A stretch of 35,168 bases of DNA, taken from positions 1 through 35,168 of the forward strand of contig JBHJHA010000030.1 in the NCBI GenBank assembly GCA_050331235.1. Reading direction: 5' to 3'. A model generated the notes under the pieces. It did no database searches. It saw only the letters and a list, made by a program, of their open reading frames with translations, and was not told where the DNA came from. This DNA comes from Leptolyngbyaceae cyanobacterium (GTDB taxonomy: Bacteria > Cyanobacteriota > Cyanobacteriia > Phormidesmidales > Phormidesmidaceae). The position numbers and the translations under genes are program-made. Below are positions 12,234 through 31,133 of this stretch, piece after piece; the first letter of the stretch is position 1, and every line of letters begins with the position of its first letter.

Positions 12234-12407
12234 AAACGGGTGGGAAATCACAAACGCATCGAGATTAGCCTATTACGATTTCCTGCCAATCAAACTATTC
12301 GCGTTTGCGGGAGGGAGGCGAAGTGCTAACGGATGGACTAGCATTGAGAGACTGATCAGAATTTTGTGTAAGCGGTCTAGAATCCCGATAACCCAGGAGA
12401 CCGCATC

Positions 12408-13658
12408 ATGCCTCAGAAAAAGCAAGAGCTGAATCGTGCCGATGAACTGCTGGATGAGATGCTCTCAGACGGCCAGAGTCCAGAAGAGATTCTGGGCGAA
12501 TCTGGCTTACTGAAACAGCTCACCAAGCGTCTGGTGGAGCGTGCTTTAGCCGGAGAACTCAACCATCATCTCAACGATACCGACGGCACTGACAGCCGGA
12601 ATAGTCGCAACGGCCACTCATCAAAGACCGTCCAGTCGGAGCAGGGAGAGTTGGAGTTAGCCATTCCCCGTGATTCTCCGAAGGAGAGGCTTCGCCAACG
12701 TCAAGGCACCTTTGAGCCCGTGTTGGTTCCCAAGCACCAACGACGACTGAGCGGTTTGGACGAGAAGATTCTGGCGCTGTACGCACGGGGGATGAGCACC
12801 CGTGATATCGCGCTGCAGCTTGAAGAACTCTACGGCGCACATATCTCACCCGCCATCATCAGCGAGGTGACTGACACCGTCAGTGAGGACGTCAAAGCGT
12901 GGCAGTGCCGTCCTTTGGAAGAACTCTATCCCATCACCTATCTGGATGCCCTCTACGTCAATATCGAAGTCGCCGGACGGGTGAGCAAACGCGCGGTCTA
13001 TGTGGTGCTGGGCATCAACCGTGAGGGCAACAAAGATCTGCTCGGTCTCTGGATTGGCGAGGTCGAGACCGAAGGGGCTAAATTCTGGCTCAAAGTCCTC
13101 ACAGACCTCAAAAATCGGGGTCTGAAAGATATCCTGATTGCTTGTTGTGATGGTCTCAAAGGCTTTCCCCAGGCCATTGAGGCGGTTTATCCCCAGACTC
13201 AAGTGCAGCTTTGCATCGTGCATCTAATCCGCAATTCCCTGCGCTATATCCCTTGGAAAGACAGCAAGGCCGTGACCGCTGACCTGAAGCCCATCTATCG
13301 AGCCGCCACCTTGGAAGAAGCCGAAACCGCGTTAGAGGAGTTTGCCGCCCAGTGGGATGAGCACTATCCTGCGGTGAGCCAAATTTGGCTCCGTCACTGG
13401 GAAAACATCATCCCGATCTTCGACTATCCGATGGAAATCCGCCGCGTCATCTACACCACCAACGCGATTGAGTCCGTCAACCGTTCCTTGCGCAAGGTGA
13501 TTAAAACTAAGGCCGTGTTCCCCGATGAGGATTCAGTTTTCAAGCTAATGTATCTGGCGATGAACAACATCTCAAAACGGTGGAATCGACCCATTAAAAA
13601 TTGGCGGGCTGCTCTGTCACACTTTGCTATTCTGTTCCCAGAACGCTTCAAACTTTGA
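12408..13658 (+). CDS. IS256 family DDE transposase carrying an 8-aa in-frame insertion
   Basis: RNSRNGH, LYARGMSTRDI, YLDAL, CCDGLKGF, QLCIVHLIRNS and IYTTNAIESVN motifs. Confidence 0.95.
   Translation: MPQKKQELNRADELLDEMLSDGQSPEEILGESGLLKQLTKRLVERALAGELNHHLNDTDGTDSRNSRNGHSSKTVQSEQGELELAIPRDSPKERLRQRQGTFEPVLVPKHQRRLSGLDEKILALYARGMSTRDIALQLEELYGAHISPAIISEVTDTVSEDVKAWQCRPLEELYPITYLDALYVNIEVAGRVSKRAVYVVLGINREGNKDLLGLWIGEVETEGAKFWLKVLTDLKNRGLKDILIACCDGLKGFPQAIEAVYPQTQVQLCIVHLIRNSLRYIPWKDSKAVTADLKPIYRAATLEEAETALEEFAAQWDEHYPAVSQIWLRHWENIIPIFDYPMEIRRVIYTTNAIESVNRSLRKVIKTKAVFPDEDSVFKLMYLAMNNISKRWNRPIKNWRAALSHFAILFPERFKL
12675..12698. repeat. 24-bp short dispersed repeat (SDR)-like insertion TCTCCGAAGGAGAGGCTTCGCCAA
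   Basis: Two mini-hairpins (TCTCC-GAA-GGAGA and GGC-TTC-GCC); removing it restores the IS256-type IPRDRQGTFEP. Confidence 0.72.
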
Positions 13659-13709
13659 ACTAAACTCTGCTTACACAAAAATCAGAACACTCTCGCATTG
13701 AACGGGGAA

Positions 13710-28785: not shown

Positions 28786-30070
28786 ATGAACTCTCTCGGA
28801 CGTCATATTCTTGTTGAGTTTCACGGCTGCTCGAGTGAAATTTTGAACGATGTCCCCCGCATCGAGTCCAGCATGTTAAAGGCGGCGAAGGAGGCCGGAG
28901 CCACCATCATTAGCTCTGTCTTCCATCATTTCTCACCATTTGGTGTTTCAGGTGTCGTCGTTATCCAAGAGAGTCACTTAGCGATTCATACTTGGCCGGA
29001 ATATCGATATGCCGCCGTCGATCTGTTTACCTGTGGGTATTCGGTTAACCCGTGGACTTCTTACGAGATTCTCAAATCAGAGTTTGAGGCTCACCATGGT
29101 TCCGCTGTTGAAATTAATCGCGGCCAGCTAGATTTGCTGGAGCGCTCTGATATTGACCTCGGGGAATTGCGCGATGCCGCCACGCAGAAGCTCACAACGC
29201 CACGCTTTAGCCGTAGCGTTTGGTTCACTGACCGCAACGAAAATATTGCCCTGTCGATTCGCCATAAAGGCGATCGCATCTTCCATGAGCAGTCCCCCTT
29301 TCAGACGGTTGAGATTTTTGACACCTTTGAATACGGCAAGATGCTCACCGTCGACAAAATGGTGATGTGCTCCGAAAAGGATGAAAAGGCTTATCACGAA
29401 ATGATCATCCATGTGCCGATGTTGGTACAGCCACCAATCAAAAACGTCTTGGTCATCGGGGGGGGGGGTTGGCGGTAGCGTCCGCGAAATTATTAAGCAT
29501 GATTCGGTCGAGTCAGACACCATGGTCGAAATCGACGAAGCCGTGGTCAGGGCCTCTCGCGAATATTTGCCAACCTTGTCATCGGCCCTAGATGATCCAA
29601 AACTCAATCTCATCATTGATGACGGCATTGAGTTTGTCCGACGGGCACCGGCAGATGCCTATGATTTCATCGTGGTTGATTCCTCCGATCCAGTCGGACC
29701 GTCTGAGGGACTGTTTAGCCATTCGTTTTATCGAGACATTTATCGATGTTTGCGCCCCTCTGGCATCATGACCGCCCAGAGCGAGTCGCCGCGATTTAAC
29801 CAGCGCGCCTTTGTGGATTTGAACCGCTGCCTCAAAGATATTTTTGGCCCTCCCTCTGTCCACTGCTATCTCGCCTTTATTCCGACTTACCCTACCGGCA
29901 TGTGGGGCTTCTCTTTCTGCGCTAAGGGGCAAGTCCATCCAGTGCAGGATCTACCGCGCGATCGCGCAGCCCAATTTGCCGACGCCCATCAATTGCAGTA
30001 CTACAATGCCGGCATTCACCAAGCCGCATTTTGCCTGCCCACCTTCATTCAAACCTTGCTCAATGAGTAG
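28786..30070 (+). CDS. speD-speE: SAM decarboxylase-spermidine synthase fusion (SpeD-SpeE) with a frameshift at the G11 tract 29458-29468
   Basis: [33 protein letters not shown] and DLFTCG (SpeD, ESH processing site) run in frame into SPFQ, YHEMIIH and VLVIGGG (SpeE). The rest ([20 protein letters not shown]) continues in another frame. Confidence 0.88.
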
Positions 30071-31133
30071 CCGCACCGACATCATCCGCAATTTTGATCC
30101 CAGTGGTGTCGGCCTGGAAAATGGCAACTTTTGTGGCTTGCCGTTTGATTGGGACACCGCCAATGTCATCCTCCTCGGGGTGCCGTGGGAAGTCACCGTG
30201 TCCTACCACGCGGGTACGGCAGCAGGGCCTGCCGCCATGCTCAAAGCCTCCCCGCAACTGGATCTGTACGATCTGGACTTTCCCGATGGTTGGCAACAGG
30301 GCATCTACATGCGCCCGCCCCCTGAGTGGATTCTTGAGTTGAATGATCAGCTGCGTCCCCTCGCCGCCCAAATTATCACCGCCACTGAAAGCGGAGTTGA
30401 TTTGACCGCCGACCTGCAGTTGTCGGCGCAACTGACCCAGATCAACCAAGCCTGTGAGCGGGTCAACCAGTGGCTTTACAACAGCGCCACGGCGGCCCTT
30501 GCGGCGGGCAAGTGGGTCGGGACCATCGGGGGTGATCACAGCATCCCCCTAGGACTAATCCGCGGGTTGGCGACCATTCACGAAAAGTTTGGCATTCTCC
30601 ACATTGATGCCCACGCAGATCTGCGCCAAGCTTACCAGGGCTTCCCTTATTCCCACGCTTCGATTATGCATCGGGTGCTGGACATTCCCCAGATGGTCAG
30701 ACTGGTACAGGTTGGGATTCGCGATATCTCCCATGGTGAAGTAGCCACGATTCAGCAATCCCAAGGCCGCATCCAAGCCCATTACGATGCCCAACTGAAG
30801 GCGCAACGATTTGAAGGCGCTTCGTGGAAACAGCTCTGTCAACAAATCATCGAGCCTTTACCTGACAAGGTTTACATCAGTTTTGATGTGGATGGTCTGG
30901 ACCCCAAGCTGTGTCCCCATACGGGCACTCCAGTCCCAGGGGGATTGGAACTCGATGAAGCTTTTTATCTGATTCGAGAAATTGTCAATAGCGATCGCCA
31001 ACTAATTGGCTTTGATGTGTCTGAAGTGGGCGATCGCGATTGGGATGGCAACGTTGCTGCCCGCATTGTTTACAAGCTCTGCAATTTGATGGGGCGTTCC
31101 CACCACCGCCATCGGCAACAGCCCAGACAATAA
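30063..31133 (+). CDS. speB: Agmatinase / ureohydrolase
   Basis: GGDHS, HIDAHADLR, SHAS and SFDVDGLDP....TGTPVPGG; ATG overlaps the end of speE. Confidence 0.9.
   Translation: MSSRTDIIRNFDPSGVGLENGNFCGLPFDWDTANVILLGVPWEVTVSYHAGTAAGPAAMLKASPQLDLYDLDFPDGWQQGIYMRPPPEWILELNDQLRPLAAQIITATESGVDLTADLQLSAQLTQINQACERVNQWLYNSATAALAAGKWVGTIGGDHSIPLGLIRGLATIHEKFGILHIDAHADLRQAYQGFPYSHASIMHRVLDIPQMVRLVQVGIRDISHGEVATIQQSQGRIQAHYDAQLKAQRFEGASWKQLCQQIIEPLPDKVYISFDVDGLDPKLCPHTGTPVPGGLELDEAFYLIREIVNSDRQLIGFDVSEVGDRDWDGNVAARIVYKLCNLMGRSHHRHRQQPRQ

Follow-up and report, generated by a model that had tools for sequence, protein, structure and literature searches.

The window, that is, the whole stretch of 35,168 nucleotides analysed, contains a complete insertion sequence (IS) of the IS256 family (positions 12348–13694), with an intact reading frame, inverted repeats of 26 bp and a target duplication of 7 bp. 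The left repeat, delimited by sequence comparison, lies at 12348–12373 on the plus strand and the right one at 13669–13694 on the minus strand, with four mismatches relative to the left; the two copies of the duplication are found on the plus strand at 12341–12347 and 13695–13701. The plus-strand frame at 12408–13658 encodes an IS256-family (Mutator) transposase of 416 amino acids, which matches Pfam PF00872 with an E value of 1e-115. Within its N-terminal DNA-binding domain, after the second strand, the 24 nt at 12675–12698 (plus strand) form an SDR5-like micro-element, read in frame as SPKERLRQ (residues 90–97): the protein reads IPRD-SPKERLRQ-RQGTFEP. The insert is bordered, on the plus strand, by a left target half, GTGAT (12670–12674; family consensus CGAT), and a right one, CGT (12699–12701; family consensus CG), both defined by comparison with an empty copy and with the sites of the family. 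The window site, GTGAT^CGT, where the caret marks the bond used, departs from HIP1 at two bases and fits the family consensus poorly.

The source genome (4.80 Mb, 52.6% GC, 6511 HIP1 sites) holds two further long copies of the IS. One, on contig C26, is 88% identical to the window copy and carries the identical 24 nt; the other, on contig C116, is 82% identical and empty, corresponding to the window copy minus exactly 24 nt, with the junction GTGAT^CGC. The boundaries of the insert are unambiguous, no sliding being possible, and no target bases are duplicated. Of the best 120 homologous transposases, 5 contain the eight residues, 113 lack them and 2 could not be parsed. The host element resembles ISCth4 (available parts of PMC7780238; PDB 6XG8), with its DDE transposase of the Mutator type, terminal inverted repeats and target duplication (7 bp), and differs from it by the eight extra residues in the N-terminal DNA-binding domain (ISCth4 residues 56–108): the alignment shows an eight-residue gap between D92 and R93, by our own count. 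As an empty copy resides in the same genome and only 5 of 120 homologues are filled, the insert is derived, and 12675–12698 is confirmed as a true 24-nt insertion into an intact IS256 element. An assembly artefact is ruled out by the presence of the insert in five genomes, a chance match or a divergent protein loop by the empty sites and by the unrelated sequence contexts described below. The earlier note, which had described an in-frame insert of 24 bp, free of target duplication, and had called for empty sites among other copies of the IS, is borne out on these points; its caveat, that close IS256 homologues might all feature a similar eight-residue segment, is contradicted by the homologues themselves.

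The same note had proposed a search of the genome for the 24-mer and its variants, and dispersal within this genome is not observed: allowing up to five mismatches, only the two IS256 copies are found, and a structural scan of this genome revealed no element beyond them, the element being silent or absent elsewhere in it. More IS256 ends were observed at contig breaks (ends of C14, C67, C41 and C13), and further IS256 copies are likely to have been collapsed in this assembly. Among contigs derived from reads of a run that may be the source sample, one over the insert has a depth of 111.7, against 18.9 for the window variant; this difference is given no weight here, as depth is not equivalent to copy number. 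The starts of contigs C22, C24, C41, C45, C55 and C73 share a repeat, present in six copies, in which HIP1-like halves enclose 25 nt; this 25-mer (5–6 copies) was considered as a candidate insertion and rejected, being part of the longer repeat at contig ends.

The element is composed of two hairpins and a terminal dinucleotide. Hairpin B (12675–12687, plus strand) features a 5-bp stem and a 3-nt loop, and covariation shows that its sequence varies among family members while pairing is kept. Hairpin A (12688–12696) has a 3-bp stem, and its minus strand holds the DNA mini-hairpin GCGAAGC. The terminal AA (12697–12698, plus strand), for which pairing with the left target half is predicted, is invariant in the alignment, but fixed by the search patterns. 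Taken alone, the 24-mer folds no better than its shuffled versions (z = -0.86, 42 of 200 shuffles folding as well): the two hairpins claimed in the earlier note are therefore upheld by covariation across the family, and not by the folding of the single sequence. When the first 13 nt are left free, 84% of the stem pairs in 61 distinct heads are Watson-Crick, as compared to 61% after shuffling (maximum 68% in 1000), the set drawing on all 76 sites, with none dropped. A structure alignment shows double changes at four of the five stem pairs; its percentages are inflated, because its rows were chosen by hand, namely the window along with 57 of the 76 sites, 12 rows of the sister family and 3 with odd flanks, near-duplicates and non-pairing rows being excluded.

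The loop of the tail hairpin reads GNA on the minus strand at 113 of the 125 family sites listed and at 48 of 76 in a second set. GCGNAGC is described, in the available part of PMC13037366, as an unusually stable, nuclease-resistant DNA mini-hairpin, whose RNA counterparts are much weaker. The confinement of this triloop to one strand points to single-stranded DNA. For a copy located in a perfect HIP1, DNA folding parameters predict a three-way junction whose closing stem is formed by the target halves, while RNA parameters give no such junction. The closing stem is weak (70% paired, with one pair mostly unpaired) and shows only one compensatory change, at its G-C pair, in the structure alignment, and 2 among the 125 sites listed; as it covaries so little, the three-way junction has the standing of a prediction. 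A search of Rfam with the element gave no match at E values up to 1. In two genomes (G497 and G455), one loop varies freely within the genome, while the stems and the remainder are fixed, a pattern for which loop-specific mutagenesis or module exchange might account.

On sequence grounds, the 24-mer is a member of a family of micro-elements spread across the cyanobacteria. Contrary to the possibility, raised in the earlier note, that it occurs nowhere else, an exact scan of metagenomes returned four matches, two in an IS1 transposase, one in a HicB-like gene and one in an unassigned gene, and thus in three contexts unrelated to one another; the junction is GCGAT^CGC in three of the four and GCAAT^CGT in the other. 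This supports the view that a mobile micro-element invaded another mobile element. Within 401 genomes of the phylum, 26 matches were found in 13 genomes, and none with the reversed control. A looser pattern, run on 401 genomes of the class, gave up to 73, 50 and 44 matches in single genomes, chance matches included, with 0–1 in the controls. One genome (G497) contains 29 copies of a single head variant (control 0), indicating amplification within the genome; by manual comparison, 27 of the 29 are in the list of elements flanked by CGAT and CG. A pattern scan of GTDB, in which flanks were left free, identified at least 123 loci; among the matches listed, 78 of the 80 titled records are cyanobacterial and 2 are unnamed bacteria. 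By title reading, 33 of these 80 are from Chamaesiphon and 13 from Nostocales; outside Nostocaceae the titled matches include, besides Chamaesiphon, Phormidesmis, Leptolyngbya, Spirulina and Oscillatoria. Of 101 structured matches, in a sample weighted to non-Nostoc genomes, 89 are 24 nt long and 8 are 21 nt long. A scan of viral sequences with a loose pattern yielded 120 matches, mostly due to chance and only 10 with any hairpin, and no convincing element among them.

The 125 distinct sites listed define the target: 86 are CGAT^CG, 96 fit the looser G-W-W^C and 22 are full HIP1. Where the left half is CGAT, CG follows at 86 of the 91 family sites listed, as compared to 18306 of 63895 occurrences in the source genome. 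Sites titled Chamaesiphon are TCGAT^CGA in 9 of 33 cases and HIP1 in 1 of 33. The main octamer of Chamaesiphon is TCGATCGA, and the DmtC methyltransferase has the hexamer CGATCG as its site (both from the available part of PMC4390886). As the outer bases of the Chamaesiphon sites match the octamer of that genus, the preferred target is the hexamer. The degenerate HIP1 target proposed in the earlier note accordingly stands as far as the GAT^CG bond is concerned, the flanks it expected from a genome search having been found at the family sites; the target itself is CGAT^CG, or the looser G-W-W^C, and not the HIP1 octamer. A sister family, in which the outer pair of the tail stem is inverted (CGC/GCG), is present in 64 of 251 genomes (control 0); its targets are looser: 5 of 32 are CGAT^CG, and in all 32 one or both of the two bases preceding the cut are T. 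Elements also appear to cluster, 3–5 lying within a few kb (L462–L469, L184, L185), and the accessory islands concerned carry toxin-antitoxin, XisI, HNH and TPR genes. Others are nested in further elements, in longer repeats or in hairpin loops (L444, L134, L074, L088, L103, L442), using non-HIP1 junctions such as GGGTA^CGC.

Of the published SDR families, SDR5 is described in the available parts of three sources (PMC4390886, PMC13756078, PMC5861425) as 21 nt long, inserted between nucleotides 3 and 4 of HIP1 and limited to Nostocaceae; for SDR-like repeats in general, the available part of PMC5861425 reports none outside that family. The 24-nt element uses the same bond on the opposite strand (GCGAT^CGC), and the reversed orientation is found at the window's own site in another IS copy (G004:C114). 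In addition, a 21-nt element located in a perfect HIP1 on the Nostoc punctiforme plasmid pNPUN03 has the same last 11 nt as the window element, which marks the 24-mer as an SDR5-like variant; we infer that this 21-nt element is SDR5. The comparison suggested by the earlier note thus holds for the bond and, if the 21-nt element is SDR5, for the tail, while the two differ in length (24 nt, with a 5-bp first stem, against 21 nt), in strictness (only 22 of the 125 sites listed are full HIP1) and in range (the 24-nt family is common outside Nostocaceae, with 13 of the 80 titled records listed from Nostocales): because of these three differences the element is filed as a variant of SDR5, and not as a member. 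In the 2008 study of SDRs by Elhai et al., SDR5 was reportedly found only within HIP1 octamers, and SDR4, SDR5 and SDR6 reportedly share a secondary structure supported by compensatory changes. The 24-nt family has a compensated double hairpin of its own. The 24-mer may be SDR4 or SDR6, perhaps already listed in the original SDR paper. A literature search, with most subscription journals outside its scope, returned no report of such elements outside Nostocaceae.

The history of the element within the IS lineage may be followed in 11 copies of the IS clade that show the site, found in 173 genomes of the family: 6 are filled, 4 empty and 1 is filled in reverse. The latter (G004:C114, locus L405) contains a different, 25-nt variant, reversed, in a perfect HIP1 at the same site, where it breaks the frame. 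In two 87%-identical copies from the same genome, G004 (one of them C84, L005), an element of the sister CGC-tail family lies 261 nt downstream, at CCCAT^CGT; these second-site carriers are identical for only 10 nt to the left and 36 nt to the right. At least three entries into this IS lineage have taken place: those of the window variant, of the reversed 25-nt variant and of the downstream sister. A CGC-tail element in similar flanks was also seen in another family (L441).

A single clade of filled copies is rejected (p-AU 1.06e-6 on 11 rows; 0% of bootstrap trees). Filled and empty states are separated by very little in some pairs: G003 (filled) and G004:C84 (empty) are 99% identical, with 16 other differences in about 1350 positions, have private bases in common as close as 4 nt to the junction, and each carries an element missing from the other; at the protein level, the filled P0004 and P0005 each differ by one residue from the empty P0029. 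The insert, in turn, is unchanged across IS copies that have diverged by 12–15%: the eight inserted codons are identical over four copies, in which 159 of the other 408 codons are invariant, with a longest run of 6. In 15 of 15 pairs, a difference between the carriers is met, on one side or both, within 1–7 nt of the junction. Either the insert was thus acquired after its carriers had diverged, or it is under special constraint. Filled copies that do not form a clade, filled and empty alleles 99% identical, an unchanged insert and an independent entry in reverse make it likely that the element moves between IS copies, and not solely as a passenger of the IS. Spread with the IS, as foreseen in the earlier note, agrees with the filled copies in five genomes, but is a partial account, filled copies being dispersed across the IS tree.

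A single entry into the IS lineage, followed by spread and loss through homologous recombination and gene conversion between IS copies, with no site-specific transfer, would account for part of these data. The IS copies are in fact mosaic: over the 5' part, G009 matches G010 at 91% identity and G827 at 75%, whereas further 3' its identity to G010 falls to 84% and, near the site, that to G827 reaches 91%. The two filled copies of the source genome share about 24 nt to the left of the insert and 6 nt to the right, and the filled copies G003 and G009 lack target duplications. Mosaicism and the two missing duplications indicate that ordinary recombination is real, and weaken the arguments based on trees. 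Single entry is therefore a rival to be taken seriously, but appears rather unlikely in view of the private bases shared by G003 and G004:C84 so close to the junction, of the short identity between the second-site carriers, and of the reversed variant, showing that fresh insertion does happen at this site.

Repeated entry at a precise bond, with no duplication, by an element of conserved structure that amplifies within genomes, is directly documented by the copies described. As to how this comes about, the reading that we favour, by a modest measure, is that the 24 nt constitute a mobile micro-element, non-coding and of the SDR5 kind, occupying one exact bond of a CGATCG-like site, which likely moves as folded single-stranded DNA and is joined there by a candidate, probably host-encoded, activity. 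Existing copies would act as donors, in a copy-and-paste fashion, and the active strand would be the one bearing the GNA triloop; no intermediate was seen among the contigs covered. After insertion, the target halves would pair with the terminal AA and close the three-way junction, and the G-W-W^C rule of target choice would follow from this pairing; nicking and joining would be the work of the candidate host activity at CGATCG. An empty, diverged IS would receive the element from a filled one, together with little of the DNA around it. Its length of 24 nt and the Asp-Arg junction may let the transposase tolerate the insert, in which case the element would also travel with the transposing IS.

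Such a route resembles that of the IS200/IS605 (IS608, ISDra2) and REP/RAYT systems, which use hairpins of single-stranded DNA and a target set by few bases beside the cut (available parts of PMC6006769 and PMC3116915). The 24-nt element differs from them in its total length of 24 nt, in requiring bases on both sides of the cut and in having neither an adjoining transposase gene nor an association with Y1 or RAYT. IS608 likewise inserts without target duplication; in contrast to it, the 24-nt element shows no apparent replication-strand bias, being distributed 52:52 on 20 chromosomes, with dnaA taken as origin and approximate chromosome lengths (13 of 33 genomes were excluded, 8 as fragmented and 5 for having no matches). 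RAYT (NF047646) exceeds the cut-off in 15 of 31 element-rich and in 18 of 35 element-free genomes, and Y1_Tnp is found in 3 of 5 and 5 of 5, respectively, draft genomes being liable to miss unassembled IS genes: neither is associated with the element. No gene family is linked to it across 277 loci. A master locus beside a mobiliser was also considered and discarded, the clusters of elements inspected holding toxin-antitoxin genes, TPR genes and tRNA arrays, and no mobiliser. The lack of a link to Y1 enzymes, of a co-travelling gene family and of apparent bias relative to dnaA argues against a plain route of the IS608 type. The restriction of named matches to cyanobacteria fits a host function, and is no proof of it.

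Movement through an RNA copy, by reverse transcription or reverse splicing, is the route that Elhai et al. reportedly favoured for SDRs in 2008. The strong variability of loops among otherwise identical copies, as expected from error-prone copying, the sister elements found in tRNA genes and the good folding of the plus strand as RNA (-8 to -10 kcal/mol) would all suit it. The conserved loop, though, is GNA on one strand, a motif of DNA mini-hairpins; RNA parameters give a plus-strand fold unlike the covarying one, there is no orientation bias relative to genes, and Rfam holds no match: we regard the RNA route as improbable. Least credible is a filled state ancestral to the IS clade, with empty copies due to repeated precise excision and the insert held unchanged by selection on its DNA sequence: it would suit the absence of the consensus C at -4 from 4 of the 6 filled sites, as if a synonymous base had drifted after one old insertion, and precise excision would yield near-identical filled and empty pairs, but it requires many losses, 25 of the 30 closest proteins being empty, and we know of no reason to select all 24 bases, loops included, while family loops vary freely.

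Movement as folded single-stranded DNA, as favoured here, may be part of something broader, which we put forward as a possibility, doubtful as it stands: cyanobacteria may host, class-wide, DNA elements of 21–25 nt, moving as single-stranded mini-dumbbells, choosing their target by pairing (G-W-W^C), inserted by a common host activity at CGATCG, and homing between diverged transposon copies with less than 10 nt of co-conversion. If so, they would rank as the smallest mobile elements based on DNA, would parasitise other mobile elements and would report directly on the machinery acting on HIP1. The locus bears on how SDRs move and on what acts on HIP1. It offers natural filled and empty alleles, 99% identical, and two insertion sites in one IS; along with the target rule CGAT^CG, taken as narrower than HIP1, and the strand-specific DNA hairpin signal, these define a simple mobility assay, by which DNA and RNA routes may be separated.

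Effects on host genes were evaluated from the context of the insertions. The insert is open in all six frames. Among 188 evaluable sites (68 with short flanks were set aside), 105 lie in ORFs of at least 130 codons, as compared to 773 of 1130 control CGATCG sites, with no bias of orientation relative to the host gene (48 sense, 57 antisense). The frame reading Ala-Ile-Ala is depleted (23 of 105, against 361 of 773 controls), while the Asp-Arg frame, used in the window, is enriched (55 of 105, against 288 of 773); these frame counts are non-independent events, because ORFs were called naively and TPR genes recur. In the IS, the frame is still open in 5 of the 6 filled copies, whose differences are mostly synonymous; this suggests that the eight residues are tolerated, and we infer that the transposase containing them is still active, but an intact empty copy could act in trans. 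The pLDDT is 43.5 for the single-sequence structure model, and below 50 over residues 86–114 for the alignment-based one, so that the models give no information on tolerance.

Members of the family add peptides of 7–8 residues to several proteins: TPR proteins, MurB, RibD and toxin-antitoxin genes. Such in-frame elements in housekeeping genes were observed for MurB (L181) and RibD (L139), each at three loci. The T-loop of tRNA genes is another place of insertion for CGC-tail sister elements (L453:1501–1524, L454 at three sites, L455, L457, L459, L460): genes for Cys, Leu, Gly and Ser tRNAs are interrupted in sense, at GGTT^CGA or GTA^C, and Phe genes in antisense. In the 12 loci run, ARAGORN calls the interrupted tRNAs, at 9 sites, only after the 24 nt are removed; L462 (the same as G034:C61) repeats L460. 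The available text of PMC8421152 contains no mention of insertions in tRNA genes. Through added peptides and interrupted tRNA genes, these elements contribute to sequence change in cyanobacteria in a small way that has been overlooked.

Elsewhere in the window, at 28786–31133, a SAM decarboxylase runs on, as a fusion, into the beginning of a spermidine synthase domain (230 aa), and is followed by a 219-aa ORF and by a gene of the arginase family; the spermidine synthase looks split.
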